A DNA stretch of 64,000 nt from Candidatus Latescibacterota bacterium (GTDB lineage: Bacteria; Latescibacterota; UBA2968; GCA-2709665), in the NCBI GenBank assembly GCA_965205485.1, contig OZ242180.1, positions 992,001 to 1,056,000 of the forward strand, given 5' to 3'. A model generated the notes under the pieces. It was not told the origin of the DNA. It saw only the letters and a list, made by a program, of their open reading frames with translations, and searched no databases. Made by a program: the position numbers and the translations under genes. This document shows, in pieces, positions 17,735-38,289 of this stretch. The first letter of the stretch is position 1. The number at the start of each line of letters is the position of its first letter.

Positions 17735-18727
17735 CTAAACCTCGATCCAGCTTTCCGTATTGGACGATGCGACGACCGCGTCCAGGATCCGGAGCACGCG
17801 AAGACCGTCCGAGACCGGGATGGGAGCACGTGCTCCTGAGTTTGCGGCCTCGGCGAACGCGGCCAGTTCCCGGTAGCACATCTCTTCGAGATTGTCGCCG
17901 GGAATGCGCAGGACCGTGGGATGCGCGTATTCAGGGATCACCCGGCTCTCCACGGTCACGACGTCGCCCTTCCAGTCGCCGCGTACCCGCCCGCGGGTTC
18001 CGTACACGTCGACGAAGTCGTACCCGACGCCGGATGCCTGGGAGACGGAAAACGTCGCAACGGCGCCGCCCTTTAGCCGTACGGTATAGGCAGACGTCTC
18101 GTCCGTCCCTCCTGCGTTCCATCTCACGATTCCCGAAACCGACTCGGCCTCGTCGCCCGTCATCCAGAGTACCTGGTCGGTCAGGTGGGAGCCCAGAAAG
18201 AGGAGCTGACCGCCGCCTTCCGCGTATGGCCCACCGAGCCACCCTCCCAATGGACCGCCGCCCTTGCCGGCCGCCACGAAGCTGACGTCTCCCACCACCC
18301 CGCGATCCAGCAGGGACTTGATAAACATCCGGCTGAGAGAATAGCGCATGCAATAGCCGACCATAGCCACCACGCCACGGCTATCCGCGGCATCCACTAC
18401 CGCGGCGCCCTCCGCTTCATTTAGACCCATGGGCTTCTCGATAAACACGTGCTTCCCGGCGCCGATGGCCGACAGGGCCACGTCCTTGAGGTACCGGTGC
18501 GGGACCGCCACGACAACCGCGTCCACGTCCGTGCTTTCCGTGACTTCCGCCACAGAATCGTGAACCGCTTCGATCCCGAAGGCGTCGGCCACCTGTCGGG
18601 CCCTGACCTCGTCCACGTCCGCACACGAAACCAGCCGGGCGGAATCGATCCGGGAGAAAGCCGGTGCGAGATTGAGGCGGCTCTGTCCACCGCAGCCGAC
18701 CAGCCCGACACGCAGCATTTTCGGCAT
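17735..18727 (-). CDS. Gfo/Idh/MocA family oxidoreductase
   Basis: VGLVGCG, GKHVFIEKPM, GGGQLL..GSH..D. Confidence 0.9.
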   Translation of the reverse strand: MPKMLRVGLVGCGGQSRLNLAPAFSRIDSARLVSCADVDEVRARQVADAFGIEAVHDSVAEVTESTDVDAVVVAVPHRYLKDVALSAIGAGKHVFIEKPMGLNEAEGAAVVDAADSRGVVAMVGYCMRYSLSRMFIKSLLDRGVVGDVSFVAAGKGGGPLGGWLGGPYAEGGGQLLFLGSHLTDQVLWMTGDEAESVSGIVRWNAGGTDETSAYTVRLKGGAVATFSVSQASGVGYDFVDVYGTRGRVRGDWKGDVVTVESRVIPEYAHPTVLRIPGDNLEEMCYRELAAFAEAANSGARAPIPVSDGLRVLRILDAVVASSNTESWIEV

Positions 18728-18799: not shown

Positions 18800-21700
18800 T
18801 CACAGACCCAGCATCGACAGGGTCCCGTCCGAAGATCCGAGCAGAAGGCGGCCGCCCACGTGCGGCGTCAGCGCGTGAATCTTCGACGCTGTACGGTGAA
18901 CGCCTAGAGTCCGTCCTTCTCCGTCCAGTATCCAAATGCTCCCGTCTTCACACCCGGCCACGATGTCCGTCGCGCCGTCCTGATTCACGTCGGAGGCAAA
19001 CAGCCGCCGTACCGGGGCCTCCAGGTTGCGCCGCCATCGCTCGGTCCCGTTTTCGTCAAACAGGTAGAGGTAGTAACAGTCCGAACCGGCCGCCACCTCG
19101 GGCTTCCCGTCGCCGTCGAGATCCACCGCGGCGACCGCGTGCACTTCTTCGCCCACCTCCCGGGTCCAACGGTACGCCAGCTTCTGACCGTCGAGCCTCA
19201 GCGCGTGCACCTTCGACCGGGTCGTTCCACACGCGATCAGATTGTCGCCATTCCCGTACAGGAACACGTCGCACCCCGGTAGCATCGACGGCCACCCGTC
19301 CAGCCCGTTTTGTGCGATCTCATTTCCGTCCGCATCCAGCACATAGCAGGTACCCCCGCAGGAAATCCTGCCGGGTCCGCCGATCACCTCGGGCAGCCCG
19401 TCGCCGTCCACGTCGGCCAGGCAGAACGGGTCGAAGATCCCGTAGATGAAGAAATTCCAGCGCTTGTTGCCGTCAGCGTCGAAACAATGGAGCTGCCGGT
19501 CGGTGACCGCCGCGAGAATATCCGGCCGCCCCGTTCCTCGAAGGTCCGCGGCCTTGACAAGCTCAACGGAGGAATTGCGCGTATACCATGCCCATCCTCC
19601 ACGGAAAATCTCGAACGTGTGGGACCACTGCACGGCGCCTTCGCCATTCAGATAGTAGAGACATCGGTCATTGGCGCCGGCTGCCACCGGACCGCTCTCG
19701 TCGCCGTTCCTCCCCGCCGCGCACACGGACAGCACCGCGTCCCCGGCCTGAAACGTCCAATCGGTTTCTCCTTCTCGGGACAGCGCCGTCACGCGCCCGT
19801 CCTGCGTCCCCGCAACCACGCCATCACCTTTGCGCGCCACGCATCGGACCGCGGTCCCGAAATCACGCGCCCACAGGGGACGGACGGATTGCGCCGGTCC
19901 CTTTCGGATGGCCGCCCCCGCACCGGAGCGCCATTCGGGCAGTCTCCACAGCGCAGTCGGCACACGTTCGACGGACGCCAGGTCCAACTCGACCGTCACC
20001 GGCTCGTCGCTCTCGAAAAGCGTTGCGTCTCCGCGCAACAACGTGCCTTCGAGCAGGGCGAACCATCCCTCCCCGATCGCGTAAACGTCCGCCTTTCCGG
20101 ATATCGGGCCGACCGCAAACGAACCGTCCGCGCCGCCGGTCCCGATGAGCATTCGCCCCTCCGATCCTTCGATCAGGACAGCAGTGTCGCCGACGCGCCG
20201 CATCCGTACGTCCAGCGGTTTCGCATCATTTGTCGCGTAGAACAGATTGATGAACGTGTGCCGGTCGCCCGCGGCCATCTCCCGGCTGACGGACTGGCGC
20301 AGGATATTGACGAAATCATCCGAATACGGATAGTCCTTCCACCAGTGCCCGAAGGCCTCCCAGTCCCGCTCCATCGTCACCCGGTCGCCTCCGGCGCCTT
20401 CCAGGACGAATCGATCCTCCCGCCCGTTGTCCGGGTCCCTCTGCAGGGTCTCCAGCCGATCCCCATGCAGCGTTGGCGTCCCCAGCGACCGCCAGTTGCA
20501 TTCGAGCGCGAACGTCCCTGCCTCCGTGGCTTCGACCTCGTCGATGACCACGAAGAATCGGCCCTTGAGCCAGACCACGTTCCTTGTCCATCGCGCTCCC
20601 CATTGCCCATCCATCGAGGTCCGGCTCATGCCCGTCCGGTCCAGGTCCGCCACGCCGTCAAGTCGGCACAGGGCGGGAACCTCCCAGGGCTCTCCGTTCC
20701 GGACCGCCGTCACCCCGTTGTGATGTTTCAGGGTGGGCCCTTCCGTGTAAGAGGCATCCACCAGAAACACCCGGTCATTCGCCGAAAACTCCACGATCGT
20801 GTTTCCGTCGTCGTGCCCGTGGTTGCCGTATGAGATCCCGTGGATCATCAGGTACTGATCGTCCCGGTCGAACCCCTCGCGAAAACAGACGGTGTCGAAG
20901 GCGTCGTCGCGCGGCAGATTGAGAGGCTTGACTTCCGACGGCCGCGCCTTCGGGTCCGTGGCGAAGTCGTAGAAGCCGTTCGCAACCTCCAGCACTTGCA
21001 CGCCCGCCATTTCCGATGGCGTTTCCGGCTCCAGGCCGTCTCCATAAAATCTCTCAAATCCATGGATGAGCGACACCCGGTCCGAATGTGAGCGAATCAG
21101 GAACTCCGCGCGGCCGTCCCGCAGCACGTGCCCCGCCTTGGCCAGGAAACTCGCCGGCGGCGGCACCTGGCATCCACCGGAATCGCCGAAGGGCGGCATG
21201 GCTCCCCGGTTGTTGCAGTACATCACCGCCTGGTCCAGCGACCGCCGGCAGTTGCCGTTCTCGATGTACGTCTCGTCCCCGCTGGCCATCGTATAGGTCA
21301 GGAGATGGTCCAGCGTCGTCCACTGGTAGGCATTCGCGTCCTCGGTTGGCTTGAACGATGCCGCCTGCCCCTTGAACAGGTCCGCGGATGCCTCCTGCCA
21401 CTCCTTTGCCTCCGACATCCCGTAATGCGTGGCGAAGTACCGGCCCGCGAACCACGACGACAGGCCCACGAGCGTCTGGTGGTTCTGCCGCAACATCCGG
21501 TGGCCCACACCCTCACGAAAGAATCGGTTATATGCGCCTTCGTGCGAATCCATCAGCCACAGCAGATAGCGCGTAATCCGCAGGCGGTCCTCATCCGAAA
21601 AAACCGGACTTTCCTCGATCAACTCCCAGATCACCGCAAGCCACCAGACGTTAAAATGCGCCATCACGCCGTGCTCACCCATCTTCAGGTGCGCATCCAC

Positions 21701-22396
21701 CGCTTCGCGCAACGCCTTCGCGTGGACCTCGTATCCCGACCGGTGATACGCGAAGCCCTGCCGTCCCGCCTCGGTGACCATCCCGTGCCCTGCACCTGCC
21801 TTCGAGGCGTGCGGCTGGCTGACCTGCCGGATGTAGTCCTCCCGCTGCTCGTCGAGCCAGCCGTCCGGCGGACGTGAGAGTGAATCGAAGGCAGGCCCCA
21901 GCTCGACGTCCATCGACCATCCGAAGCTCACACTCATACCCGTGCCGACTCGCTCCAGAAACCGCGACGCGGCGCGGTCCAGACCGGCTTCGTCGCTGGC
22001 TCCCAACAGGACCACGTTCCTTCCGCTTCCAAGCAGGTTGTGAAGCGTCCGCAGCGTATACCCTCCCTCACCTGGATAACTGAGGTCTTCGATCGCCCAC
22101 CACTGGTAATACAGCCAGCGGACGAAGGGGTTGTCCGCCATATTTCCCAGTGCGACCACGTGCGTATCGAGCAGTCCCTTTGAGGCCGCCACATCCTCGG
22201 CACGGACGACCGGCAGACGGGCGCCCGCGGCCGCCTCGATCCCTTCGGCGATTCGCGCTGCCAGCCGCCGGTGCGCAGGATTCTCCCCGATGACGATCTT
22301 CCCTCCGGGTTGGCCGTCGGCCGCCAGTACCGTCTCCAGGTACATGTCCTTCAACTTTCCGATTTTCAGTCCGACCGACCCCTGATCCGAGTCCAT
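18800..22396 (-). CDS. Heparinase II/III-like lyase plus FG-GAP/PQQ-like beta-propeller (~1198 aa)
   Basis: ATG 22396 with AGGAGG. RQNHQ, EDANAYQW, PPFGD, NHGHDDGN, HHNGVT. C-terminal DxDGDG repeats. No signal peptide. Confidence 0.75.
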   Translation of the reverse strand: MDSDQGSVGLKIGKLKDMYLETVLAADGQPGGKIVIGENPAHRRLAARIAEGIEAAAGARLPVVRAEDVAASKGLLDTHVVALGNMADNPFVRWLYYQWWAIEDLSYPGEGGYTLRTLHNLLGSGRNVVLLGASDEAGLDRAASRFLERVGTGMSVSFGWSMDVELGPAFDSLSRPPDGWLDEQREDYIRQVSQPHASKAGAGHGMVTEAGRQGFAYHRSGYEVHAKALREAVDAHLKMGEHGVMAHFNVWWLAVIWELIEESPVFSDEDRLRITRYLLWLMDSHEGAYNRFFREGVGHRMLRQNHQTLVGLSSWFAGRYFATHYGMSEAKEWQEASADLFKGQAASFKPTEDANAYQWTTLDHLLTYTMASGDETYIENGNCRRSLDQAVMYCNNRGAMPPFGDSGGCQVPPPASFLAKAGHVLRDGRAEFLIRSHSDRVSLIHGFERFYGDGLEPETPSEMAGVQVLEVANGFYDFATDPKARPSEVKPLNLPRDDAFDTVCFREGFDRDDQYLMIHGISYGNHGHDDGNTIVEFSANDRVFLVDASYTEGPTLKHHNGVTAVRNGEPWEVPALCRLDGVADLDRTGMSRTSMDGQWGARWTRNVVWLKGRFFVVIDEVEATEAGTFALECNWRSLGTPTLHGDRLETLQRDPDNGREDRFVLEGAGGDRVTMERDWEAFGHWWKDYPYSDDFVNILRQSVSREMAAGDRHTFINLFYATNDAKPLDVRMRRVGDTAVLIEGSEGRMLIGTGGADGSFAVGPISGKADVYAIGEGWFALLEGTLLRGDATLFESDEPVTVELDLASVERVPTALWRLPEWRSGAGAAIRKGPAQSVRPLWARDFGTAVRCVARKGDGVVAGTQDGRVTALSREGETDWTFQAGDAVLSVCAAGRNGDESGPVAAGANDRCLYYLNGEGAVQWSHTFEIFRGGWAWYTRNSSVELVKAADLRGTGRPDILAAVTDRQLHCFDADGNKRWNFFIYGIFDPFCLADVDGDGLPEVIGGPGRISCGGTCYVLDADGNEIAQNGLDGWPSMLPGCDVFLYGNGDNLIACGTTRSKVHALRLDGQKLAYRWTREVGEEVHAVAAVDLDGDGKPEVAAGSDCYYLYLFDENGTERWRRNLEAPVRRLFASDVNQDGATDIVAGCEDGSIWILDGEGRTLGVHRTASKIHALTPHVGGRLLLGSSDGTLSMLGL

Positions 22397-22420
22397 ATTT
22401 CCTCCTGCCCGCGGTCCCAC

Positions 22421-25400
22421 TCACGGGCGGTCATCCACCCGCCACCGGCTGATCTCCCCCTGGTCCGTCGCCAATACAACGGCGCCGTCCGCCGTCAAGA
22501 TGCAGGTCGGCCTCCCGGTCAACCTGCCCGACAGGACAACCTCGCCGCCGCCGTCTAGGATGACAAGGGTCCCGTCTTCGCAACCCGCCGCCACCCTCGC
22601 GCCGCTCTCCGCCCTAACTGCCGCCATCACCGCCGGCGGAGACGGCAGCCGCCTCGCCCAGAGCTTCTCACATCGGTGATCGAGGGCGAGAATCAGCCCG
22701 CCCGACAACGCGGCGAGGAGCTCCTTTCTTCCGTCGCCATCCAGGTCGAAGACGTCGAAGTCCCGCACGTTGTCCGACGGAATGCGCTGCCCCGGGCCCA
22801 GATGTACGTTGTGCAGGGCGCGCCCGTCCTCCGTCCAGACCGTCACCCGGTTCCAGGTCCCGTTGATCTCGCTGACCACTTCCTTCCGGCCGTCTCCGTC
22901 CAGGTCCTCGTAGAAGATGTGCTTCCGGCTCATACAGGCCCATCCGCCGATACTCGTATTTCCGTCCGGCACGTCGTGGAAGGCGCGCTGCTTCGGGTCC
23001 AGTTCGCGATTGTTCACGACGGCCATCGCGTGGGAATCCGTGGGCTGCCGCGCGATCAGCAGATCGATGCTGCCCTCGGGCCCGTCGATCAGGGCGAACC
23101 GGGAACCCGGGCCCCAGAAAACCGGGAGCCGTTTCACCAGGTTCCCGCTTTCGTCCAAAATCTCGAGCGTGCAGGCGCTGCCGACGAATGCCTGGCTTTT
23201 GCCATCCAGAAAAACGCCGGAATGCAGTCCGTGAACGCCGGCATGTCCCGGCGCCGTCTTGAACCAGTAGGGTTTCGCGGCCCTGAACACGGCGGGGTCT
23301 TCCTCGGAGACGAAGACCCATTTCCGGTCGCCGGAATCCGGATCGAACGCGATGACCCTTTCGTCCTCGCACCCGGCCAGAAGGAGGTCGTGCTCCCCCC
23401 ACCAGTGGAGGAGACGGATGGGACCGTCGGTCGGCAGGGTCCGGAGAATTTCTCCTTCCTGCGACAGCACGTGGACATTCCGGCCTTCGGCCGCACAGAT
23501 CAGCGTTTTCCCGCCGGAATCCGCCGTGACCATGTCCACCACGCCGCCACCCACAGGGGAAGCGAAAACCGGCGATATTGACGGGACATCCGGCATAACG
23601 GGCGATGGCGCGGCCGCGGTTTGCCGTCTGGCATCCCGGCCCTGCTCCAGAAGGCCCGAGAGCCGCGCCGTCACCCTTTCAAGCGCGGCCGCGTCGGGCG
23701 CCGCGCCGGTAATTGAATGCCTCCCCGCGGGGATTCGGATCGTCTCAGGGCCCGGTCCATCCCCACCGTACTCCGGTACGCTTCCGTCGACGCGCACGCC
23801 GCGCGGATCGGAAACGGCCAGCCGGATTTCGGTCTCTTCATCCACAACCAGCTCCAGCACGCCATTGTGAAAGTCCCAGTCGACCTGAACCGGCGCGCTT
23901 GCCCGGAGCAGCGAGGCGCCCAGCGCCGCCGTGGTCAGATTGACGCCGTGCAGATGGTCTCCGGCCAGCACAACCAGATCGCCGTTCAGTCCCTCGTAAT
24001 CTCCCGTGGCGGCCACGGCCGGCTCCGGGAGCGCCAATGCCGCGGCGTTTTCGGCCAACCGCACGCACGCCGTCCCGTCTCCTGCCAGCAGCGAAAACCA
24101 GCATCTCCCGCTTCCCTTCTCCACCGTCCCCCGCCACAGCATGCGGGCCTGGCTTTCCGCAACGGCGGTCTCTACCGGATCCGACATACAGATCCGGGCG
24201 ATATCGCGGATGCGCGCGGCGCCGCCATCCGGCAGTGCCGCCCACGCGCCTTTCCCCTGCCAGAGGAACTCCACCTCCAGTTCCTCGCTGTCCGCCCGGA
24301 AATCCAGACGGTCGACAAACAGCGCGTACCGGCCGACGCGCTGCGCCAGTGTCCTGCGCCAGGCGCAGAACGCCGCCCTAGGTACCTCTGCCGCAACAAC
24401 GGCGGTCCCCCCGACCACGTCCCGGTACTTGAGCGCGGAATCCATCGCCACCACCGGCTCCACCATCCCCTCGGAACGCGTCAACACCTGGTTCAGGTAG
24501 CCTTCCAGCAGCGTTTCTCCATCCAGTCGAAGTTCCAGAACGACAAAGGTGTGATACGCGTTTCGGGACGCGCCGTTCATTCCCTTCACCAGGATGAAAT
24601 CTCCGCTTGAATCCGCTGCGCTCCGAAAACTGCCGAACAGATACGATTCCTCCAGCGGCAGTCCGCTGTGACGGTCCCCCCACAGCGGCTCGGGGATGGG
24701 ATGGATTGACCACCGGTTCACAAGATCCGCGGGCAGGCGGGGCTCGATATCGTCTTCCGGCCAGAAAGACTGCCCCAGCCGGAAGATGTCCAGGTCCATC
24801 CCGGTCCGGCGCAGGTATTCGCGGTAACGGCCGTCTCCGGTCAGATAGGCGGCCTTGTTGAGAAACCCGATGGACGCGGAATTCAGGGCCCAGTCGGGTT
24901 CGCGCCCCGAGGCGAGGATCTCCTGCCCGCGAAGCAGGTTGGCCATGACGCCGTTTTCAATGGGTTTACGGTCGCCCGTAAGCAACATATAGCTCAGAAT
25001 AGGGGCCATTCCCGTATTGTACCAAAACAGATTGTCGTGTTCCCCGTCCACCAGGGCGTGGTGATGCAGTGATGCGAAATGCCATCTGGCGGCCTCCATG
25101 GATTGCTCCCAGAGCGTGCTGGGGTAGTGGCTGTTGAAGTAACGGCCGAGACAGTACAGCGAAATCGCGGACCACTGCCCATGCCGCGACCCCACGCTGT
25201 GCGGGGGATCTCCGAATCCACTCGTGCCGCTACGCACGTTTTCAACGACCCGCCGCCTGGCGCCCTGGTCCTGCGCGTGGCCGAACTGTGCGGCGAACGC
25301 GTTGGTCACACGCAGGCGTTCATCGTCCGTAAACACGGGGCTTTCTTCAATCAGATCCCAGTACAGGATCATCATATGCGCGTTGTAGTGGTAGGGTCCG

Positions 25401-26137
25401 CTCAGCGGCTCGTCCTTGTTTTCGATCCGCTCTCCGTCGATTTCCGTGATCTCCGCCATCGCACGGTCGTCCGGGAAGGCCAGCCGGATGGCTTCCCGCG
25501 CGTGAAAGGCGTCTCCGGTCATGTAGTACATCGCCATTCGCTTGCTGATGCTGTTCCACCCGAAATACCCCACCGAACCGTACCCGGCGGACGCCTCCCA
25601 GGTCTCGAATTCCCGGATGTCCCCGGGAACCTGGATTCCCCGCCCCAGCTCGATCTCCATCAGCCAGCCCAGCGAGAGTTCGCCTTCCCCCGCTTTTGCT
25701 TCCGACACCTTCCCCGCCAGCACGCCGGCCGCCGCTTCCACACCCTCCGCATCGCTTCCGCCCACGAAGATCACATTGTGCCCGTTGCCGAACGGATTGT
25801 GAAGCGACCGGACCTCGTACCCGCCCGGCCCCGGATAGCGCAGGTCCAACAGCGTGTAGTACTGGTTATAGAGCGATTCTATCGTTCGGTTGTCGGACCG
25901 GTTGCCCAGCACGATCAGATGTCCGGAGATGGGCACGGCTCCGGCCGCGGACAGGTCATCGTCAACGGGTACGAGCACGCCGGTCTTCGCCTGAATCGCC
26001 GCCTGAACGCGATTTGCGGCCCCGGCGTAGCGTCCGTCTTCCGGAACCACGATCGTTGCGTTCGGCCGGCCGTTACGGACCAGTTCCGTATCGAGATTCA
26101 GGTCCTTCAGTTCCGAGTACACTGGTGGAATACGCAT
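22421..26137 (-). CDS. Heparinase-like/beta-propeller fusion, divergent paralogue (1238 aa)
   Basis: Shares LKDLxLxT, YPGPGGYEVRSLHNPFGNG and WDLIEESPVFTD with the paralogues. DLDGDG repeats at the C-terminus. GGAGG RBS. Confidence 0.7.
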   Translation of the reverse strand: MRIPPVYSELKDLNLDTELVRNGRPNATIVVPEDGRYAGAANRVQAAIQAKTGVLVPVDDDLSAAGAVPISGHLIVLGNRSDNRTIESLYNQYYTLLDLRYPGPGGYEVRSLHNPFGNGHNVIFVGGSDAEGVEAAAGVLAGKVSEAKAGEGELSLGWLMEIELGRGIQVPGDIREFETWEASAGYGSVGYFGWNSISKRMAMYYMTGDAFHAREAIRLAFPDDRAMAEITEIDGERIENKDEPLSGPYHYNAHMMILYWDLIEESPVFTDDERLRVTNAFAAQFGHAQDQGARRRVVENVRSGTSGFGDPPHSVGSRHGQWSAISLYCLGRYFNSHYPSTLWEQSMEAARWHFASLHHHALVDGEHDNLFWYNTGMAPILSYMLLTGDRKPIENGVMANLLRGQEILASGREPDWALNSASIGFLNKAAYLTGDGRYREYLRRTGMDLDIFRLGQSFWPEDDIEPRLPADLVNRWSIHPIPEPLWGDRHSGLPLEESYLFGSFRSAADSSGDFILVKGMNGASRNAYHTFVVLELRLDGETLLEGYLNQVLTRSEGMVEPVVAMDSALKYRDVVGGTAVVAAEVPRAAFCAWRRTLAQRVGRYALFVDRLDFRADSEELEVEFLWQGKGAWAALPDGGAARIRDIARICMSDPVETAVAESQARMLWRGTVEKGSGRCWFSLLAGDGTACVRLAENAAALALPEPAVAATGDYEGLNGDLVVLAGDHLHGVNLTTAALGASLLRASAPVQVDWDFHNGVLELVVDEETEIRLAVSDPRGVRVDGSVPEYGGDGPGPETIRIPAGRHSITGAAPDAAALERVTARLSGLLEQGRDARRQTAAAPSPVMPDVPSISPVFASPVGGGVVDMVTADSGGKTLICAAEGRNVHVLSQEGEILRTLPTDGPIRLLHWWGEHDLLLAGCEDERVIAFDPDSGDRKWVFVSEEDPAVFRAAKPYWFKTAPGHAGVHGLHSGVFLDGKSQAFVGSACTLEILDESGNLVKRLPVFWGPGSRFALIDGPEGSIDLLIARQPTDSHAMAVVNNRELDPKQRAFHDVPDGNTSIGGWACMSRKHIFYEDLDGDGRKEVVSEINGTWNRVTVWTEDGRALHNVHLGPGQRIPSDNVRDFDVFDLDGDGRKELLAALSGGLILALDHRCEKLWARRLPSPPAVMAAVRAESGARVAAGCEDGTLVILDGGGEVVLSGRLTGRPTCILTADGAVVLATDQGEISRWRVDDRP

Positions 26138-26173: not shown

Positions 26174-28141
26174 TCAATACGCGTGAACTCCGTGACCCTG
26201 ACCAGGGAAAAAGATCACGTCCAGAACGTAACCCAGGGGAACGGCCAACGCGTATCCGACAATGGTCCCGATAAAGAACGGCACGGTCCGCCGATAGAGC
26301 AGCATGCCGCCGGTCTTGATCACGACAAACTTGCAGACCCATGCGGCAAAGATGCTGAAGGCCGCGTGCCTCGTCATGCCGGTGTAGCCCACCGCCAGCC
26401 CGGCCGGGTGCACCGGCCACCAGTTGAACCGGTATCGCAGGAACGCCAGCAGGGCCATCCCCGCGGCGCCGGCCGCAAAGAGGATGAACGACGCCGCGTG
26501 AACGGGATCCGGGCTGCGCATGTGGCTGACGTATCCGTTCACGCTCGGCACGGTTCTCCGGAAGAGCGCGATACTGCCGAAATTGTACGCCCCGCCGGAA
26601 TATCCCCAATAGAGCGTCAGGGCCACGGAAGTCGCGATGCTCGTCAGCAGGCCCAGCCCCACGACCCACCCCAGCTGCTTGCGGTGGCGCTCGACCCGTT
26701 CGGCCAGCTTTGCAATCTGCGCGAAGGCCGGCATGAACAATCCCATGTGGTCGTTTGCGAACACATTGGTAAACGCCATGGCCGTGAGCCCTTGCGCCGG
26801 AATGGACGCCGCGCCCGCGGTGCCCAGAATAAGCCCCTGGGCGCTCTGCGGCAGGTTGACGTAGAGCAGACCGGTCTGCGCCACGATCCGCGCGAGACCC
26901 AGGTAACTGAGGAACAGCAGCACGGTCAACGCCGTGGACAGGAGCAGTCCCATACCGGCCATCTGCAACCAGCAGATGACAAAAGCCACTCCCAGAACCA
27001 GCCCCCACACCGCCCATCGGTACCGCATGAGTTCTCCCGAGTCCTCCGCGCCGTCCGCTCGACCCAGCGCACGGCGAACCACCCGCCTGAGGTGCCCCCG
27101 GGCCGTCCACAGCGCCAGGCCCACGTAACACATCATCGCCCCGCCGCCCTGCCACGACACGTCTCCGCCGGAGAATCCCGCAACCCCCAGTCCAATCCGG
27201 GCGAACGCCGCGATCTCCATAATGTAGAACAGATGAAACAGCCAGATGCTCAGCAGAAGGTCCAGCCCCGTCATGTACGCGAACCCGATGGTATAGAAAT
27301 TGAGGCTCACGTGGACCATCGAGTACTGTGTAAAGTACACCCACAACTGCTGGTGAAACAGACGGATCATCGGGAATCCGTGCACGAAGGCGGGCACCAG
27401 ATTCCAGACCTTGATCGCCAGCGCGACCGACAATCCCGCAATGAACAGCCGGTTCCGCAACAGCCCGGCCCATTCGCCTCTGCCGGCGGCCCCCTCCGCC
27501 ATGTCCGCGGCCACCGAGGGAATGGGATAGGCCAGCCGTTCGTGCCCGGACCACTGCCGGTGAAGCACTGCAACCGTACAGAACGAAACCAGCGCCATAC
27601 CGCCCAGCAGCGCCGTCCACCAGAAGAGGGGAACAGCCCATTCGCCCCAGGGAATCCCCTCCCCGGGGGGAAGACCCTCGAAGAGCCATCTCATGGCTCC
27701 CTGCGCGTTGGACGGCACCATCCATCCGGGCACGTGGGGCAGGAGGTACTCTCCCCACTGGTTCTCCGGCGTGGCGAGATAATGCGGGATGGCCAGCATG
27801 CCGATCCAGGTCGTGGACAGACCGAACGTCGGCACCATACCCCCCGCCAGGCCCGCGCACAGCGCCACCAGGAGTTCAGGGCCGGACATCGCCAATCTGG
27901 GAGCGAACCGCCGGAGGACCGGAGTCGCCAGGACGAGGATCAGGAACGGAACGAACACGCCCATGGGGAAATGGGTCCGGTTCAGCCATGATCCCCGGAT
28001 GATATAGAGCGAGTGCAGGCTCCAGAAATTGTGCAGGGCGGCAATTCCCAGGCCCAGGCTCAGGGCGCGCGCCGAAACCCCGCGTATCGCCAATTTCGCG
28101 CCGGCTATCCCGGCTTCGCGTTGCCCGGCAGGACTCGCCAT
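26174..28141 (-). CDS. DUF6785/DUF6784-family polytopic membrane protein (putative transporter)
   Basis: Hydrophobic helices throughout. Motifs YLATPENQW, QW..HERL.YP, RIVAQTG, WWPVHPAG, PFFIG.I.G. Confidence 0.75.
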   Translation of the reverse strand: MASPAGQREAGIAGAKLAIRGVSARALSLGLGIAALHNFWSLHSLYIIRGSWLNRTHFPMGVFVPFLILVLATPVLRRFAPRLAMSGPELLVALCAGLAGGMVPTFGLSTTWIGMLAIPHYLATPENQWGEYLLPHVPGWMVPSNAQGAMRWLFEGLPPGEGIPWGEWAVPLFWWTALLGGMALVSFCTVAVLHRQWSGHERLAYPIPSVAADMAEGAAGRGEWAGLLRNRLFIAGLSVALAIKVWNLVPAFVHGFPMIRLFHQQLWVYFTQYSMVHVSLNFYTIGFAYMTGLDLLLSIWLFHLFYIMEIAAFARIGLGVAGFSGGDVSWQGGGAMMCYVGLALWTARGHLRRVVRRALGRADGAEDSGELMRYRWAVWGLVLGVAFVICWLQMAGMGLLLSTALTVLLFLSYLGLARIVAQTGLLYVNLPQSAQGLILGTAGAASIPAQGLTAMAFTNVFANDHMGLFMPAFAQIAKLAERVERHRKQLGWVVGLGLLTSIATSVALTLYWGYSGGAYNFGSIALFRRTVPSVNGYVSHMRSPDPVHAASFILFAAGAAGMALLAFLRYRFNWWPVHPAGLAVGYTGMTRHAAFSIFAAWVCKFVVIKTGGMLLYRRTVPFFIGTIVGYALAVPLGYVLDVIFFPGQGHGVHAY

Positions 28142-28166
28142 ACAACATATTCCTCAGTTGGCCCGT

Positions 28167-31100
28167 TCAGGACGCGACCTCCTGGACGGGCGACGTCTCC
28201 AGTTCCGCCTCGCCCTGCCGCGCATAGTCCGTCTTCGTTTCCGGAGGCATTGTCTTCCACACCAGAAAGAGCTTGCGAAGGTCGTTCAGAAAGCCCCTGT
28301 TCACGCGTTGCCACGAGTTCACGTCTCCGCTCAGGCGACGGATACGGACCTCTATGCGGTATATATCGTGTTCTCCCGTGGGAATCGCATTCATCTGGAC
28401 GTCCTGGCTGATGCCCAGATCGTACGGCGCCAGCCACATCCGCAGCGCGATCCTGTACCCCGTGCCGGCCGGAAGCGGATCGGACCCGAAACGTACGTCC
28501 CGCGAAACGAACCGGCCCAGGGAACCCTCGCCGAATGACTCGAAACTCCGAAAGAGATAGGTGTACATCCCCAGGGCTTCCGATCCCGCCAGGGTAAACG
28601 GAAAGTCGAAAGTCCAGTCGTCCCCATCCGGATTCGGAAACTGCCACCGCCGCGTCACGTCCGGTACGGACATCTGTTCGGCCTTCCTGGCCGGATAGAG
28701 GGTGGACAGGAACACCGCCAGCATCACAAGCAGCGTGGAAGAAACCGCCGAAAGGGAAGAGTAGTTCAACGACAGCCCGCCCAGCGCTCCCTGCTCGTAC
28801 AGGACCAGCGCCAGCGCCTGGCCGATCAAATAGCCGAACGCCGCTCCCAGCGTGGCGAACACGGCCGCTTCAGCAAGAAAGAGCGCGGATATGTGGCTTG
28901 GCGCCAGGCCCACCGCCGAGTAGACACCGATTTCGCGGAATCTTTCATATACGGCGCCCATCATCGTGTTCAGGACGATGAGCGAGGCGATCAGCAGCGG
29001 GATGAAGAGATTCGCGATACCGGAAAGGGAGGTGGTGCCGATGGAGCTGTATACGGTCACCTCGTCGTCGATCCCGACGAACATCGTCAGAGCAACCCGC
29101 GACATGAAGTCTTCGATCTGCCGGCGGACGTCCTGGCTGGGATTGCCCTGTGCGTCTTTGAAATCGGTGATCGCGATCGACCGGAGGGTACCCCCTATTT
29201 CGATGACGAACTCGTACGGGAGCAGCGCCGTATTGCTCGTGTCCAGGTGAATGAACGCCTCGATCGGCTCAGCTCCCATCAACCTCGGGTCCTGGCTCAG
29301 GTTGCGCCAGTCGCTCGTTCCCGCGGTCTCCATCGTCGTGTCGATGGGCGTCGGGCGTTCGTCATCCATATCCGCGAGCCTGTCCACGGCCCGGGAGTCC
29401 AGAATCCCGACGACGGCCAGCTCCACCCCCAACATACGCACCCGCGCCCGGCCGGCTTCCACGTCCGCGCCGGCGATCCCAACGAGGTCCGCCAGTTCGC
29501 CCGGCAGGATGACCGCGTGCCGTTCCCCCTCCCGGAACCAGCGGCCGGCCGTCAGCAGTCCGTCCATCCCCAGCACGTGCGGTTCCACCGGCGTCACGCC
29601 CAGCAACCCGTTCGCGAAACTCCGCCGTCCGCTTTCGGGTTCCTCAAAGTCGATATACGCTCGCTCGCCTCTCTTTTCTGAAATGTAAAACGCCCGGGGC
29701 GCAACCCGGGCGAAACCGCCGAAATGACTCTGGATGTACGTGAGCGCGGAGGGCTGCATTCCCCTCCAGTTCCGGTCTCTCACCAGCGCTCCCTGGTAGG
29801 GCGGACGGTTGTCCCTGGGCAACTTGTAGAAGCGCAGGTACGTCTGGACCGACGTAAACGAGAGCACCGTGAAGGTCAGCAAGGTCAGCGTGACCGCCGT
29901 GAGCCCGCTTCGGAGCGGGCGTTTTCGCAAATTCGATACGCCCAGCGTAAACGCCACGATCATCGCGGAGATCCGTCCCACGTCCTCCTCGTACACACCC
30001 GTTGCGGACTGCTTCATTCGTCGTACCTGTTCCGCGAACCTGGACACCACGATCACCATTGCCACCCCGCCCAGACACAGGATCACAAACGCGAGAAAGA
30101 TGATGTAAGGAGAACCGGACAGTTGAAACGCAGGATGCACCCACCGCAGGGCCAGGAACATGACAATGAGAATCGCGGCGAATCCGACAATACGCCTCTG
30201 GACGTCTGGAAACCCGAAAAACAGCCGCTCGCAAAAGAACGAGAACGGCAACAGCAGGACGAAATAGAAGATGACGCCGCGGACCGTGTCGTTGGCCGTC
30301 TCCTTCACCTCGGGGTAGCCGCGCGCCTCGAGCCCCCAGCCCTCTCTGGCCGATGCAATGAACCGGTCGTACCGCAGGTTCTTCAGGTGGCCTTCGGCTT
30401 CGAGCAGAGACGCGCGCGCGCGGTCGTGAAGCCCGGAAAGCCTCTGGTTTTCCACGCCGTACCGAGCCAGTTGCTTCATCCGGACGTCATCTACGATCCA
30501 CATATCCCGTGCCGCGCGGTAGGAAGGCAGGGTAATCGCATTCCCGTCCGGTTCGTACCCGGCTCCCATGGACCGGATTACCGTCTCCGCGTTCACCTGC
30601 CGCGGCGCAACGGGATCGGACAACAGGTCTTCCGGAGCGTTGATGAGCAAATACTTGATTCCGAATAGCCCGCTGCTCATCAGGATCTTGATCCGCTCGC
30701 CGGGAGGAGCGAACGCCACGGACGCCTGGGTGACCTTTCCCTCCTTCCGTCCCTGGTTGGCCACGTAACGAAAGCCATATTCTATCGGTTCACTGTTGTC
30801 CCTTCCCAGCACCTTCATATGGTCGAGCACGGACAGATAGCTGGAATCCACAATCTCGAACAGGCTCAGCGACCGGCACCTGAACAGCACGCCCATCATC
30901 TCGTTGTCCCACCACCCGTATCCCTGAACCAGGGGATACTTCCCGTTTCTTCCATCCGACCCGGCGCCGTCTATTCCCATATCCGGCGCCGAGACGATCC
31001 GTCCCTCGGCATCGAGTTCGTATGCCAGAACGTGATTCGAAAAACGGTTTCTGACAATGTCGAATTCAAACCGGCCGGTCTTTGCGACCACCTTCCTGGA

Positions 31101-32879
31101 ACCGTACAACGCCCCTCTGGAGGCCGGGCCTTCGTAAATCGGGCCTCTCGTGGTCTGCGTGACCATCAGCGTCCGTACGCCTGCAAGGCTGTTGGGGCCC
31201 GGTTGCTTGTACGTCACCAGTGCCCCCGGGACCGGCACCCTGGGAATCGCGAAGTCCACGTCCCGGTCGAACCAGAGAATCCGCCCGGACAGGCGGTGGC
31301 CGCGGTCCATCAGCCGAAGCTGGGTCTCGCGGAAAAAGCCCGGGTCGTTACCCGCCCGGATCATCATTGCAGCCACCGACCTCACCTGGTCGGTCAGGCG
31401 GTCGAAGGCCATGGCCTCGGGAACATCGAGCGGCGTGTCAGTCCGGACGCGACCGTCGTACAGGGTCACCAGGGTCATCGCCTCCTGCCCGACGAATACG
31501 GCAGCCTCGCTCTCCAGGGCCAGCGGGACCGGCATATATGACGTCCAAGGCCGCTTGGCCGGGGCCACCACGTCCACGTAGCGCTCTTCATCCGGAAAGA
31601 GCGCCCGGGTGTACTCGCGGAACCGGTGCGAATACGGCGTCAGCAGATTCTTCAGGTATTCGTCAGTCCCCTTGCGGGCGTTGTAGAAGGTCCCCATCGC
31701 GAATCCGCCCACCTGTCTGCTGCGGCTGGACAGGTCCAGCCCCACGAACAGCCTGTAGTCGATCCGATCGCCATCGGGGATCCGGTCCCGGAAGTAATCG
31801 CTTCGGCGGGAATGTCTGAAGAGGAAATCGTTGATTCCCGTCAGCCCCTCGAAGTGCGCCGACGTCGCCAGAAAGAGGAAGGAGTGCCTGGAACCGTGCC
31901 GCTGCAGCGAACGGATCACCTCGAGCAGGGCGGCGGCTCCCGATGCGCTCTCGGCGCCGGGGGCGAGCGCGGGCACCACGGACATGGCGTCATAGTAGGC
32001 GCCAACCACAATCAGCCTGTCCTTCCACCTGGCGCCCGTTCCTCCCGGAATGCGCTCGTCCGATCCGGGCAGATATCCGAAGACATTGGCCGACTTCACC
32101 GTCTGCCACTCCATGCGGGCGGTGAGATGCACGTTGACATCTCCGCGTTCGACGTCCTTCAGAAGGCGATGCGCATCCTCCCGGCTCACCCAGAACCGGG
32201 GCACGTTCACGGGCACCTCCAGAAACTTGTCCTCCGCCTCCCCGCGGGTCACGTTTCCGTCGTCGAAGAACAGAATGGCCTTCGCGCCGAGGGTCATCGC
32301 GTTCAGGTAATTCTGTCCACAGCCGAAGTCCATCAGCACGACGCTTCCGTCCACGACCGACCCGTTGAAATCCGAGAAATCCCCGCGCCGTCCGTAGATC
32401 AAATGCCCCTCGACGCCTCCGGCCGGGAGCGACGGCGTCCGGACGTCATTCGGCCAGAGGCCATAGATGGGTATCTCCTCGCCCGTGGCAGTCACCTTCA
32501 GAACGCCGCCCCGGTCCACCGGCACGGTCACGTCGAAAGCCTCCGTGGTGACCCGCTCCAGACCCAGCGCCTCGAACTGCGATCTGATGTATTCCCGCGC
32601 CTGCCGTTCGCCGTCGTATCCCACCACGCGCGACGGCATCCGGGTCAGGGCCGCCACGTGGGTACGGACGTCGTCTTCCGCAATCTCATCCACAATTCGC
32701 CGTACCGCCCGGTCCGCGGCCGAAAGGTCTCCCCGGACCTGTTCGGGCGGCGGCAACTGCCTGATTTCGAACGTATCCCTGATCACGTCGGACACATTCT
32801 CGGGGTCGAATACCACCACGAGTGCGAGGACGCCAAGCGTCAACAGAACGAGCAGTGCCCTTTTTATTCCGTTGATCAT
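28167..32879 (-). CDS. 1570-aa fusion: TM anchor, PA-containing degenerate M28-like domain, TM bundle, MacB-like periplasmic domain, FtsX permease, C-terminal domain
   Basis: SRVVGYDG, PA insert (GHLIYGRRG..VVLMDFG), AYYD..APGAESASG, NLRKRPLRSGLT, ERFREIGVYSAVGL..I..LFLAEA, STLYPARKA. Confidence 0.8.
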   Translation of the reverse strand: MINGIKRALLVLLTLGVLALVVVFDPENVSDVIRDTFEIRQLPPPEQVRGDLSAADRAVRRIVDEIAEDDVRTHVAALTRMPSRVVGYDGERQAREYIRSQFEALGLERVTTEAFDVTVPVDRGGVLKVTATGEEIPIYGLWPNDVRTPSLPAGGVEGHLIYGRRGDFSDFNGSVVDGSVVLMDFGCGQNYLNAMTLGAKAILFFDDGNVTRGEAEDKFLEVPVNVPRFWVSREDAHRLLKDVERGDVNVHLTARMEWQTVKSANVFGYLPGSDERIPGGTGARWKDRLIVVGAYYDAMSVVPALAPGAESASGAAALLEVIRSLQRHGSRHSFLFLATSAHFEGLTGINDFLFRHSRRSDYFRDRIPDGDRIDYRLFVGLDLSSRSRQVGGFAMGTFYNARKGTDEYLKNLLTPYSHRFREYTRALFPDEERYVDVVAPAKRPWTSYMPVPLALESEAAVFVGQEAMTLVTLYDGRVRTDTPLDVPEAMAFDRLTDQVRSVAAMMIRAGNDPGFFRETQLRLMDRGHRLSGRILWFDRDVDFAIPRVPVPGALVTYKQPGPNSLAGVRTLMVTQTTRGPIYEGPASRGALYGSRKVVAKTGRFEFDIVRNRFSNHVLAYELDAEGRIVSAPDMGIDGAGSDGRNGKYPLVQGYGWWDNEMMGVLFRCRSLSLFEIVDSSYLSVLDHMKVLGRDNSEPIEYGFRYVANQGRKEGKVTQASVAFAPPGERIKILMSSGLFGIKYLLINAPEDLLSDPVAPRQVNAETVIRSMGAGYEPDGNAITLPSYRAARDMWIVDDVRMKQLARYGVENQRLSGLHDRARASLLEAEGHLKNLRYDRFIASAREGWGLEARGYPEVKETANDTVRGVIFYFVLLLPFSFFCERLFFGFPDVQRRIVGFAAILIVMFLALRWVHPAFQLSGSPYIIFLAFVILCLGGVAMVIVVSRFAEQVRRMKQSATGVYEEDVGRISAMIVAFTLGVSNLRKRPLRSGLTAVTLTLLTFTVLSFTSVQTYLRFYKLPRDNRPPYQGALVRDRNWRGMQPSALTYIQSHFGGFARVAPRAFYISEKRGERAYIDFEEPESGRRSFANGLLGVTPVEPHVLGMDGLLTAGRWFREGERHAVILPGELADLVGIAGADVEAGRARVRMLGVELAVVGILDSRAVDRLADMDDERPTPIDTTMETAGTSDWRNLSQDPRLMGAEPIEAFIHLDTSNTALLPYEFVIEIGGTLRSIAITDFKDAQGNPSQDVRRQIEDFMSRVALTMFVGIDDEVTVYSSIGTTSLSGIANLFIPLLIASLIVLNTMMGAVYERFREIGVYSAVGLAPSHISALFLAEAAVFATLGAAFGYLIGQALALVLYEQGALGGLSLNYSSLSAVSSTLLVMLAVFLSTLYPARKAEQMSVPDVTRRWQFPNPDGDDWTFDFPFTLAGSEALGMYTYLFRSFESFGEGSLGRFVSRDVRFGSDPLPAGTGYRIALRMWLAPYDLGISQDVQMNAIPTGEHDIYRIEVRIRRLSGDVNSWQRVNRGFLNDLRKLFLVWKTMPPETKTDYARQGEAELETSPVQEVAS

Positions 32880-32898
32880 CGTTCACCCTTACACAGGA

Positions 32899-34863
32899 CT
32901 ATTCGATCCACGGGTGGATGCTGTGTCCGGCTCCGGGGAACATGAACATATCCACGAGGAACGCCCCCGTTATGCCCAGAACGTGCCCCACGAGCAGGCC
33001 CAGGAAGAACGGCTGCGCCTGCCGAAACAGCGAATTCCCGCCAACCCGCAGGATAACCGTCTTGCACGACCAGGCCAGAAACAGCGTCAGCGCAAAATTC
33101 CGTACCAGGTCCGTGCCCATGATGGCGAACCCCACCGGGTGGATCGGCCACCACGGAAACCGGTAGCGGAGGAACGTGAGGACGACCATAACAGCGGCGC
33201 CGATACCAAAGAACATGATCCGGTTCCAGTCGACATCGAACGGCTCCTTGATCTTGCTCACCGTATCCGGAAAGTTGTGAACCCCCCCGCAGATGAAGCC
33301 GTGTCCGAAATTCTCGGCGCCGCGCGTGTAGCCGAGATATAGCGTCCCGATGATCACAACCAGGGTCGTCGCCAGGAAAGACAGGCCCACGGCCCAGAAC
33401 AGGCGCCTTCCGCGGTCCCGGACCTGTTCTCCCACCTTGGCCACGTGGGACATCTGCGAGGTCGAATTCGCGTGGATCGGATACGAAAACAGGAGCGTGG
33501 TGAGGCTGGACGGCGACACGGCTTTGGCACCCAGCAGATAGACCGAAAAGCTCTGCGCCGTCATAGGACCCTGCACGTACAGGAGGCCCGATTCGGCAAT
33601 AATCCGCGCAACGCCGATGTAGAGGATAAACAACATCGCCACCAGCGGAATGGCCATCTGCAGGTCCATGCCCGCCCGGTTCAGCCAAACGACCGTGAAC
33701 ACGAATCCCACAAGAATGCCGACGACCGCCGTGCGGTACGACAACATCTCACGCGAATCGTCCACGGAATGGTCCGACCGCCAGGCCTTCATCACCACGT
33801 CTTTCAGGTGGCGCCTGGCCATCCACAGACCGAACAACACGAAGACGCAAAACGCGCCAAGGCCCTGCCAGCTCGATGCGGCGTCATAGGAACCGTACCG
33901 GTCGCCGCGCCCGCCGATACTGTAGCCCAGCCTGTTGAAGATGCCGAATTCCAGCACGAACACCGCGAAGAAGAACCACACGCTGAACAGAACGTCCAGA
34001 TTCGCGAAATAGGAAAACGCGAACGTAAACGGATCGATATAGCTGAACATCGGCGGCATATCCCGGCCGAAGAAGGCGTACACCCGCCCCCGGACCGGCA
34101 TCTCGGGGAAGGCGGGGGAGATCCAGGGCAGCGCGTTCCAGAAAATAAAGACGAACGCGAACCCCGCCCCGAACCAGAACAGCTTTCCGCGGGCGAATCT
34201 CGGCCACAAACCGCCGGTTTCGGAACCGGAGGCCATTTCCACGATCGGTTCCAGGACCGGGTACCGCAGCCGCTCGTGTTCCACCCATTGTTTCCGGAGG
34301 ATCACCGAAAGCGAAGCCGCGGCGAAAGCCAGCACGCAGAACAGAAGCACCCACCAGAACATGGGAACGACCCACGCCCCCCATGGAATCGCGCCCTGCC
34401 CGCCGGGCAGGCCGTTGAACAGAAGCGTAACGGCGCCGTCCACGTCAAGGGGCGCGACCCACGAAGGCAGGTGCGGGTGAAGAAGGGCGCCCCACTGGTT
34501 TTCCGGAGTGGCCAGGTAGTACGGAATGGTTATAAAGGCATACAGTGCCGCGATGGGGGCGCCGCCCATCAGCCCCATCGCGAATATCGTCAGGATCTCC
34601 GCGAGGCTCAGCCCGGCGGACCGGACGACCCGCCTCAGGAAGGGATTCAGGACGAACAAGACGAGAAGAATCGCGATAAACAGGGCAGGCGAAAGAAATC
34701 CGGCCGTCACGCCGGACGACCGGATCACCCGGCTGGAAAAAATACCCCAGCCCTGTATGAACAGAGCGACGCCGAGCCCGATGGCAACCGCCCGCACAGT
34801 TACGCCGCGTCGTTCCAGGCCTGACGCCGCTTCAGGAATCGAATCCGGTTGCGCTTGCTGCAT
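32899..34863 (-). CDS. DUF6785/DUF6784-family polytopic membrane protein, second paralogue
   Basis: YLATPENQW, KQWVEHERLRYP, RIIAESG, WWPIHPVG, PFFLGLLVG. ATG 34863 with GGAG 6 nt upstream; alternative TTG at 34887. Confidence 0.75.
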   Translation of the reverse strand: MQQAQPDSIPEAASGLERRGVTVRAVAIGLGVALFIQGWGIFSSRVIRSSGVTAGFLSPALFIAILLVLFVLNPFLRRVVRSAGLSLAEILTIFAMGLMGGAPIAALYAFITIPYYLATPENQWGALLHPHLPSWVAPLDVDGAVTLLFNGLPGGQGAIPWGAWVVPMFWWVLLFCVLAFAAASLSVILRKQWVEHERLRYPVLEPIVEMASGSETGGLWPRFARGKLFWFGAGFAFVFIFWNALPWISPAFPEMPVRGRVYAFFGRDMPPMFSYIDPFTFAFSYFANLDVLFSVWFFFAVFVLEFGIFNRLGYSIGGRGDRYGSYDAASSWQGLGAFCVFVLFGLWMARRHLKDVVMKAWRSDHSVDDSREMLSYRTAVVGILVGFVFTVVWLNRAGMDLQMAIPLVAMLFILYIGVARIIAESGLLYVQGPMTAQSFSVYLLGAKAVSPSSLTTLLFSYPIHANSTSQMSHVAKVGEQVRDRGRRLFWAVGLSFLATTLVVIIGTLYLGYTRGAENFGHGFICGGVHNFPDTVSKIKEPFDVDWNRIMFFGIGAAVMVVLTFLRYRFPWWPIHPVGFAIMGTDLVRNFALTLFLAWSCKTVILRVGGNSLFRQAQPFFLGLLVGHVLGITGAFLVDMFMFPGAGHSIHPWIE

Positions 34864-34973: not shown

Positions 34974-35001
34974 ATAATATGGAAATATCTTGATTTTTCA
35001 A
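34974..35001 (-). promoter_or_regulatory. Putative sigma70 promoter for the DUF6785-FtsX-lyase operon
   Basis: Minus strand TTGAAA-16 nt-TATTAT in an AT-rich gap. A CTTGA-N4-TCAAG inverted repeat overlaps the -35. Confidence 0.4.
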
Positions 35002-38245: not shown

Positions 38246-38289
38246 AGGCGTCACCTCCGAGCGTATTTCCCCAATGTCTCGAGGATTAC

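Follow-up and report, generated by a model that had tools for sequence, protein, structure and literature searches.

What kind of membrane system is encoded by three adjacent minus-strand open reading frames in this 64,000 bp stretch of a Candidatus Latescibacterota contig (the window), and does it work, as an earlier note on the same DNA proposed, without an ATPase? From the putative promoter downstream, the relevant features are:

34974..35001, minus strand: sigma70-like promoter candidate, TTGAAA-16-TATTAT (1 found against 0.2 expected)
32899..34863, minus strand: gene A, 654 aa from ATG; DUF6785 and DUF6784; predicted OPT/Yellow-Stripe-fold carrier by homology to C
28167..32879, minus strand: gene B, 1570 aa; type VII ABC transmembrane subunit, its large head on the outer side
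26174..28141, minus strand: gene C, 655 aa; DUF6785 and DUF6784; modelled OPT/Yellow-Stripe elevator fold
22421..26137, minus strand: gene D, protein resembling heparinase II/III, signal-less and ending in a C-terminal beta-propeller, probably co-transcribed with the trio
18800..22420, minus strand: gene E, paralogue of D
17735..18727, minus strand: Gfo/Idh/MocA sugar-type dehydrogenase, by domain match

Domain matches confirm that two paralogous DUF6785 proteins flank an M28-like/FtsX protein: A and C match DUF6785 and DUF6784 (E 4e-100 and 2e-102), are 36% identical to one another and share YLATPENQW, QW..HERL.YP and WWPxHPxG, and B matches PA, Peptidase_M28 and FtsX. By a rough gene model the trio are the only proteins in the window with at least 7 hydrophobic segments. 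The intergenic gaps are 19, 25 and 36 nt, and the longest frame of gene A starts at a TTG at 34887. The upstream promoter and the downstream dehydrogenase that had been suggested both held up, the former as a single candidate whose -10 hexamer is kept in 12/14 orthologous upstream regions and the latter as the Gfo/Idh/MocA protein. Gene D follows the trio in 15/16 orthologous loci. D and E (1.2 kaa each), described previously as signal-less and lyase-like, show no signal-like N-terminus in a hydropathy check; their likeness to lyases comes solely from profile comparison with the heparinase II/III-like proteins of the window (97.5%), heparinase III appearing at only E 0.15 in the comparison with solved structures. 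The source genome carries 47 heparinase-like genes. In the domain annotation of the window the trio has no neighbouring gene for an adaptor or an outer-membrane duct, and gene C gave no plasmid match.

The predicted model of C (pLDDT 93.7) matches HvYS1 (PDB 7wsr/7wst) of the OPT/Yellow-Stripe family (TC 2.A.67) by Foldseek and VIA (TM 0.65, E 1e-6; VIA Z 24.1, rmsd 4.0, 547 residues aligned). The whole-chain fold is shared, with the core and scaffold of the Yellow-Stripe elevator recognisable in the model of C and, by homology, in A. Among the listed matches YS1 stood apart, the next reaching Z 5.2, and no GT-C, ion-coupled or other carrier fold was prominent; on the strength of this model DUF6785 has an OPT/Yellow-Stripe elevator fold; that its members carry solutes is very likely. 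YS1 emerged from the fold search alone, searches against solved structures with the C sequence and with DUF6785 and OPL (a second OPT-like family) profiles giving nothing significant. A and C differ from HvYS1 in sequence (11-12% identity) and in having, between helices two and three, an additional lobe on the outer side that is conserved. Neither has a match to PF03169 (Pfam OPT), which falls on 11% of members in one Atlas DUF6785 cluster, and the NPG and KIPPR motifs described in the consulted part of PMC3061005 are absent from the 150-row DUF6785 consensus. The segments corresponding to the proton sites of YS1, mapped by secondary structure only and not by coordinates, contain no invariant Asp or Glu; where the ninth helix breaks, position D464 is acidic (Asp or Glu) in 77/150 rows and has no equivalent in gene A. 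Segments corresponding to the YS1 substrate region are variable, and cytoplasmic-type motifs are conserved. The family is large (3,021 of the 50%-identity cluster representatives match at E 1e-30 or better), and a literature search covering few subscription journals returned no paper on DUF6785, DUF6784, PF20581 or PF20580.

Gene B can be divided as follows:

31320..32717, minus strand, residues ~55-520: M28 peptidase fold into which a PA domain is inserted, with remodelled metal and catalytic sites
30285..31298, minus strand, residues ~528-865: two beta domains, then a three-helix bundle towards the membrane (AlphaFold model, middling Z only)
30042..30287, minus strand, residues ~865-946: three extra transmembrane helices, highly conserved and absent from MacB
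28659..29987, minus strand, residues ~965-1407: complete MacB/FtsX module of amphipathic helix, TM1, periplasmic domain, TM2, coupling helix and TM3-4
28245..28625, minus strand, residues ~1419-1545: cytoplasmic helix-grip-like C-terminal domain (weak, common arrangement)

The MacB/FtsX module matches MacB by Foldseek (E 5.5e-11) and YtrF, MacB, FtsX and LolC by VIA (Z 12-15), and shows the MacB topology with its periplasmic domain between TM1 and TM2. Between TM2 and TM3 lies the major coupling helix, which reads E-R-x-x-E-I, with E1311, R1312, E1315 and I1316 invariant in 112/112 homologues; B is a type VII (MacB-like) ABC subunit whose coupling helix is intact. The C-terminal domain resembles Bet v1/Aha1/START-like folds (VIA Z 8.3-9.0), and an Atlas search with it gave no usable match. 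By profile, the head matches a PA-containing aminopeptidase (E 3.5e-15), transferrin receptor (E 1.5e-4) and nicalin (E 4e-5). The di-zinc ligands and catalytic Glu are presumably H97, D117, E151, E152, D179 and H256 in Vibrio aminopeptidase numbering. Across the 112 homologues of B the H97 site is Y (51), H (31) or F (29), the D117 site E (110), the E151 site H (112), the E152 site F (108), the D179 site D (112) and the presumed H256 site, which lies beyond the printed alignment and was located by motif, D (112). Homology to the M28 fold is retained and the ligand and catalytic set is not; on these remodelled positions an active peptidase was rejected, and the head is, judging from sequence, probably inactive. 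Transferrin receptor and nicalin, inactive M28/PA proteins with receptor roles, likewise have a PA-containing M28 fold that has lost its metal ligands, but the head of B sits in a bacterial ABC subunit and has invariant pocket residues of its own (D296, H341, D381, D480).

The statement that the window lacks a Walker A ATPase is correct, a six-frame scan for G..G.GK[ST] and LSGG[QME] being empty. That the machine itself lacks one is not supported, because B keeps its coupling helix and the genome encodes elsewhere a dedicated small-FtsX/ATPase pair that is found together with B across the phylum. The small FtsX is single-copy (G000:C1:2728321-2729151) and pairs with an ATPase at 2729206-2729934; a second dedicated ATPase lies at 4873714-4874502. 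Together with PqqD and OPL genes, all parts of a core operon known from other lineages (order B-OPL-X293-PqqD-smallFtsX-ATPase) are present in the source genome, scattered and unlinked to the trio.

Deeper lineages keep small FtsX, ATPase, PqqD and OPL with B in one operon, found in full in 5/20 chosen genome loci (L045, L048, L049, L050, L052) and 5/80 metagenome loci. Operon linkage and co-occurrence make this ATPase and the small FtsX the candidate partners of B; in 75 of the 80 metagenome loci, many of them short, B stands without the pair. DUF6785 or OPL lies within the B flanks in 24/25 loci with long flanks. Among 151 genomes of the phylum, B occurs in 138, DUF6785 in 137 and small FtsX in 131, with exactly one small-FtsX match in each positive genome (B copy numbers are lower bounds, at least 7 in G148; DUF6785 counts outside the source genome, up to 88, are first-look candidates). 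The same 44/52 high-quality genomes carry all three, and all three are absent from family f10 (0/13 genomes); DUF6785 without B was not found in any of the 151. The ATPase subfamily and OPL occur in 32/32 B-positive genomes examined and 0/8 f10 genomes, the ATPase being 73-98% identical and adjoining small FtsX in 31/32. Because the survey covers one phylum with essentially one loss (f10), this co-occurrence does not amount to many independent events. ATPase matches of 150-160 bits in L075, L078 and L083 were treated as generic and left uncounted. All 8 long DUF6785 proteins found, plus P0189, are B-DUF6785 fusions, joining the C-terminal part of B to DUF6785 through linkers of ~8-20 residues; they occur in one lineage, are intact in two genera and may all go back to one event. 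When C (15-655) was modelled as a complex with B 668-1015, a segment comprising the second beta domain, the three-helix bundle, the extra helices and MacB TM1, the score was 0.00 in two runs; this counts neither for nor against contact, and the part of B joined in the fusions lay outside that job.

The trio is neither the whole system nor a fixed unit, since its B is one of four paralogues in the genome (3 among the matches listed in the genome survey) and B most often neighbours OPL. Instead of lyases, the other three paralogues adjoin genes for OPL, TPR and spermidine synthesis as well as unrelated ones, and the B of the trio groups as sister to the B-OPL clade rather than a decayed outlier (FastTree; this and a quick DUF6785 tree were midpoint-rooted). 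Gene C is split in locus L026. An obligate A-C heterodimer was rejected on L029, where C is internally deleted, and on L033, which has two A-type genes in a cassette present without D and E. The genome holds 23 confirmed DUF6785 genes (25 first-look candidates) to one small FtsX, 19 of the 23 lying >10 kb from any B gene, among them a B-less tandem pair whose second gene is the sister of C (950937). At 16 other DUF6785 clusters, enzyme families pre-chosen from the window make up 15/104 neighbours against 6.5 expected (~2.3-fold, p 0.01), a modest catabolic enrichment; 7/16 clusters have no chosen family within three genes. Against these 23 DUF6785 genes stand 4 SSF, 15 MFS_1 and 5 SBP_bac_1 matches in the genome.

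We give about even chances to a reading in which the trio is a duplicated and specialised cassette of a system for ATP-dependent uptake, a small number of motors being common to many carriers. B would join the single small FtsX and the dedicated ATPases in a type VII ABC motor of heterodimeric build, and it very likely uses the ATPase in trans. The MacB motor has no transport path of its own; that of B would also lack one, its dead M28/PA head acting as an outer receptor or docking platform, with A and C, as OPT-fold elevator carriers, providing path and specificity. ATP-driven motion of B may load, gate or drive these carriers, whose physical complex with B is reasonably likely, and import is the probable direction. 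The earlier proposal of an importer of anionic oligosaccharides or glycopeptides with an M28-like receptor is supported in its head, here a pseudo-peptidase, in its probable direction and in a link of DUF6785 to catabolic genes, albeit a modest one. The cassette might import acidic oligosaccharide fragments to be cut in the cytoplasm by the signal-less, lyase-like D and E, a cargo to which we give slightly less than even weight; PqqD in the core operon and the peptidase-like head point to peptides, not glycans.

Compared with known type VII systems (MacB, LolCDE, FtsEX, YtrEF, HrtBA, YbbAP-TesA, BceAB), B shares the four-helix module, TM1-TM2 periplasmic domain and TM2-TM3 coupling helix, together with a candidate ATPase of LolD/MacB type and a likely heterodimer of two differing transmembrane subunits. 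It differs in its 860-residue pseudo-peptidase head, three extra helices and cytoplasmic C-terminal domain, in a 229-aa small FtsX as putative partner, which has almost no periplasmic domain and is single where B has several paralogues, and in constant linkage to OPT-fold carriers and PqqD. An ordinary MacB-type exporter with its ATPase encoded elsewhere had been named as the outcome that would count against the earlier proposal; a candidate ATPase is there, but the system does not resemble such an exporter. Unlike OPT/YSL proteins, DUF6785 is fused or linked to an ABC subunit and lacks invariant counterparts of the YS1 proton-site aspartates. The sharing of few motors would recall Group II ECF transporters, whose scattered specificity subunits use one ATP module (PMC7755397 and PMC4820897, in the parts consulted). 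The likeness, at 23 DUF6785 to 1 small FtsX, is one of logic only: there is no homology, the carriers being 14-helix OPT-fold proteins rather than S-components and the motor type VII rather than EcfT.

A rather unlikely alternative makes A and C autonomous ion-coupled carriers, most DUF6785 proteins working without a motor and B, small FtsX and ATPase forming a real but loosely attached helper that captures, unfolds or presents periplasmic cargo or regulates the carriers. HvYS1, which has the same fold and is the one relative with a solved structure, works by itself as a proton symporter (PMC9691689, in the portion consulted), and the DUF6785 genes far from any B, the tandem pair and the frequent acidic residue at D464 agree with this; the absence of DUF6785 without B in 151 genomes, the natural short-linker fusions, the proton-site segments and the missing D464 equivalent in A speak against it. 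Less probable still, and improbable on the whole, is a self-contained, ATP-independent trio powered by an ion gradient, with a vestigial FtsX part: the window has no ABC ATPase and most B loci are unlinked from one, but the coupling helix is intact in the B of the trio and invariant in its family, every B-positive genome examined has a dedicated ATPase, and this B is no decayed outlier.

Export or envelope biogenesis, which we consider unlikely, would have the cytoplasmic PqqD/RRE protein pass peptides or proteins to OPT-fold subunits that move them out, the motor and nicalin-like pseudo-peptidase extracting or maturing them. The type VII roles given in the consulted part of PMC5985334 are export, lipoprotein extraction and cell division, and the core operon includes PqqD, TPR and a very conserved ATPase. 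The weak B-nicalin matches that fit this reading are, however, no better than those to active aminopeptidases or transferrin receptor, and 23 divergent carriers amid catabolic enzymes suit varied nutrients better than a single biogenesis job. OPT-family members are, moreover, described as uptake porters in the consulted part of PMC3061005.

The shared-motor uptake reading extends, as a possible but doubtful generalisation, to a new class of primary importer in which a type VII motor drives OPT-fold elevator carriers by mechanotransmission, a single small-FtsX/ATPase module is common to several giant subunits, each bearing a receptor, and to tens of interchangeable DUF6785 carriers, and the whole is the main organic-solute uptake route in most of the phylum. 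We know of no characterised type VII ABC system that is an importer. The consulted part of PMC5985334 is consistent with this, and neither an ABC system energising a secondary-carrier fold nor an importing type VII system was found in the literature searched. The earlier view of an undescribed multi-subunit membrane system is supported, searches on FtsX, M28, oligopeptide transporter, PqqD and RRE (mostly outside subscription journals) having returned no account of it; the consulted part of a Latescibacteria genome paper (PMC4454575) names standard transporters alone. An unstudied family, DUF6785, thereby gains a fold and a testable job, and an exact parts list is available for reconstitution. 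Should the carriers be driven by the motor, an ABC system would be energising a secondary-carrier fold and a type VII system would be importing; if true, this would also point to how these uncultured bacteria take up their food, the source genome being rich in heparinase-like genes but having few standard sugar transporters.

The trio lies on the minus strand where the earlier note had placed it, in the order A, B, C, with two further genes (D, E) downstream:

32899-34863, minus strand: A, 654 aa, DUF6785+DUF6784
28167-32879, minus strand: B, 1570 aa, with PA, M28 and FtsX domain matches
26174-28141, minus strand: C, 655 aa, DUF6785+DUF6784, 36% identical to A
22421-26137, minus strand: D, heparinase II/III-like with C-terminal beta-propeller
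18800-22420, minus strand: E, heparinase II/III-like
35084-38254: 1056-aa gene just upstream of the trio
39341-41308: dockerin/EF-hand-like repeat protein; weak SpoIVB (S55) peptidase match

The gaps A-B, B-C and C-D are 19, 25 and 36 nt, in agreement with that note, and the promoter it proposed corresponds to a promoter-like site 110 nt upstream of A, with a -10 hexamer conserved in 12 of 14 orthologous regions. The nearest related loci are in Latescibacterota or Gemmatimonadota MAGs, and of 16 orthologous loci, 15 have D and E downstream of the trio; L033 is the exception, with different neighbours. D and E had been called signal-less and lyase-like: neither has a signal-like N-terminus, and lyase-like stands for a resemblance to heparinase II/III seen only in profile comparison. 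At C1:2835972 (contig C1 of the whole genome), a close paralogue of D does have a signal-like N-terminus. The 1056-aa gene, whose position is conserved among the orthologous loci inspected, has no match in Pfam or NCBIfam and no significant PDB match; a local iterated search recruited it into the heparinase-like set.

Domain order in B was drawn from hydropathy, alignment and a predicted model of residues 520-1570 (pLDDT 82). From the N-terminus it runs through an anchor, an M28 domain with the PA domain inserted, two beta domains and a bundle of three helices. Next come three additional membrane helices, an entire MacB module and, on the cytoplasmic side, a helix-grip-like domain. The MacB module matches MacB, LolC/E, YtrF and FtsX in structure comparison, the coupling helix is invariant (112/112 homologues), and B passes the structural tests for the type VII (MacB-like) ABC class. 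Since MacB is described as channel-less, turning ATP binding into movement in the periplasm (PMC5985334), B would need an ATPase plus a second subunit, and any solute path must be outside B. As an M28 enzyme the head fails on its catalytic residues: His occupies the catalytic Glu position in 112/112 homologues, the ligand position after it is Phe in 108/112, and the first His is retained in only 31/112. Several pocket residues are nonetheless invariant, which suggests a putative binding site rather than decay.

Fold comparison of C (predicted model pLDDT 93.7) gave one clear match, barley YS1, an OPT-family carrier (TM 0.65; Z 24.1 vs 5.2 for the next), described as a proton-driven elevator built of a core and a scaffold domain (PMC9691689). 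Although the OPT fold is common to A and C, both fail the family's sequence tests. Among 150 DUF6785 sequences, the QW..ERL.YP, WWP.HP.G and C-terminal motifs are conserved (entropy 1.1-1.8 bits), whereas segments placed in the YS1 substrate region by secondary structure only are variable (2.5-3.1 bits vs a mean of 2.43). One C orthologue (L029:14809-15204) has lost residues 70-578 in frame; its genome also carries a further cassette, L033, containing two A-type genes.

The claim that no ATPase is present was borne out by motif scan for the window and fails for the genome, which encodes two ATPases of one subfamily. One stands in the row ATPase-DUF6785-B-OPL around one of four B paralogues, OPL being an unannotated family for which hhalign shows homology to DUF6785 (96.3%, 462 columns); the other adjoins a 229-aa FtsX protein whose outer domain is nearly absent (small FtsX). 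A PqqD protein and an unknown 293-aa partner lie at 4241263-4242767. In deeper lineages the genes for B, OPL, the 293-aa partner, PqqD, small FtsX and ATPase form a single operon, in 5 of 20 hand-picked genome loci and in 5 of 80 from metagenomes (two near-identical). A FastTree phylogeny places the window's B as sister to the B-OPL clade, and it thus reads as a duplicate that retained DUF6785 neighbours instead of OPL. Across 151 genomes of the phylum, B occurs in 138, DUF6785 in 137 and small FtsX in 131, the last always as one match; all three are absent from family f10 (0/13). In a chosen set of 40, the ATPase subfamily and OPL are both present in all 32 B-positive genomes, and neither is in any of the 8 from f10. 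The whole co-occurrence pattern comes from one phylum and one loss. The ATPase adjoins small FtsX in 31 of the 32, contig ends separating them in the other, and B is accompanied by DUF6785 or OPL at 24 of 25 long-flank loci. Three OPL proteins have large insertions near the C-terminus (L045:4841-7717, L046:12534-15155, L016:14899-17316), one with a two-component-regulator propeller match.

Catabolic genes are modestly enriched near DUF6785. Domain scans of 67 neighbouring proteins include PhyH, Gfo/Idh/MocA, xylose-isomerase-like, UxuA, enolase-family, amidohydrolase and heparinase II/III-like members, along with TPR, transferase and unrelated genes. Families fixed in advance from the window account for 15 of 104 neighbours of the other 16 DUF6785 clusters vs 6.5 expected (p 0.01; rough gene model, 3,510 genes), and are absent from 7 of the 16. 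Local iterated searches of the genome gave 47 heparinase II/III-like, 100 Gfo/Idh/MocA and 69 PhyH genes; about 19 large proteins combine heparinase-like and beta-propeller parts, with window members at 4747-8724, 18800-26137 and 46722-50465. Lacking signal-like N-termini, D and E could be reached by a glycan fragment only after import, and oligosaccharide uptake has been guessed from gene context for one bacterial OPT subcluster (PMC3061005). PqqD and the peptidase-like head of the core operon suggest that the older cargo was peptides.

Individual DUF6785 loci on C1 vary. A tandem pair without the giant gene (950937-955012, L004), its second gene sister to C, immediately precedes a sugar ABC importer (SBP_bac_1, permeases). 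The DUF6785 gene at 4283092-4285260 (L014) is immediately 5' of an ABC ATPase gene; the other strand there encodes an NMT1-type binding protein and a permease. At 3780397-3789528 (L013), TPR-DUF6785-B precedes a fused S-adenosylmethionine decarboxylase/spermidine synthase gene. Downstream of the gene at 854168-856168 (L002) come Fur, a TonB-dependent receptor and a PepSY-TM gene, a possible metal-chelate context, as with YS1.

We consider an ATP-dependent importer the likeliest reading, held with middling confidence. B would form the motor together with the lone small FtsX and the ATPases, the head of B would capture or present cargo, and OPT-fold subunits would carry it. Eight long DUF6785 proteins were retrieved; in all of them, and also in P0189, B and DUF6785 are fused in frame through a short linker. 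The fusions are 55-99% identical among themselves and intact in two genera. Ion-coupled carriers working autonomously, with the motor a loosely attached helper, are a less probable but serious alternative. In its favour, 19 of the genome's 23 DUF6785 genes lie over 10 kb away from the nearest B; against it, alignment segments corresponding to the YS1 proton sites, again mapped by secondary structure only, hold no invariant acidic residue. An export or biogenesis machine seems unlikely, and a trio independent of ATP, as the window viewed by itself might suggest, more unlikely still given the ATPases linked to B.

Under the importer reading, a few motors may be common to many carriers, on the model of group II ECF transporters, in which many carriers per few motors are described (PMC7755397, PMC4820897); beside its 23 DUF6785 genes, other transporter matches in the genome number 4 SSF, 15 MFS_1, 5 SBP_bac_1 and 21 BPD_transp_1. 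The individual parts belong to known kinds, and their combination was not found in the literature searched. To this the present analysis adds the copy-number asymmetry, the B-DUF6785 fusions, the conservation pattern and the neighbour enrichment test.
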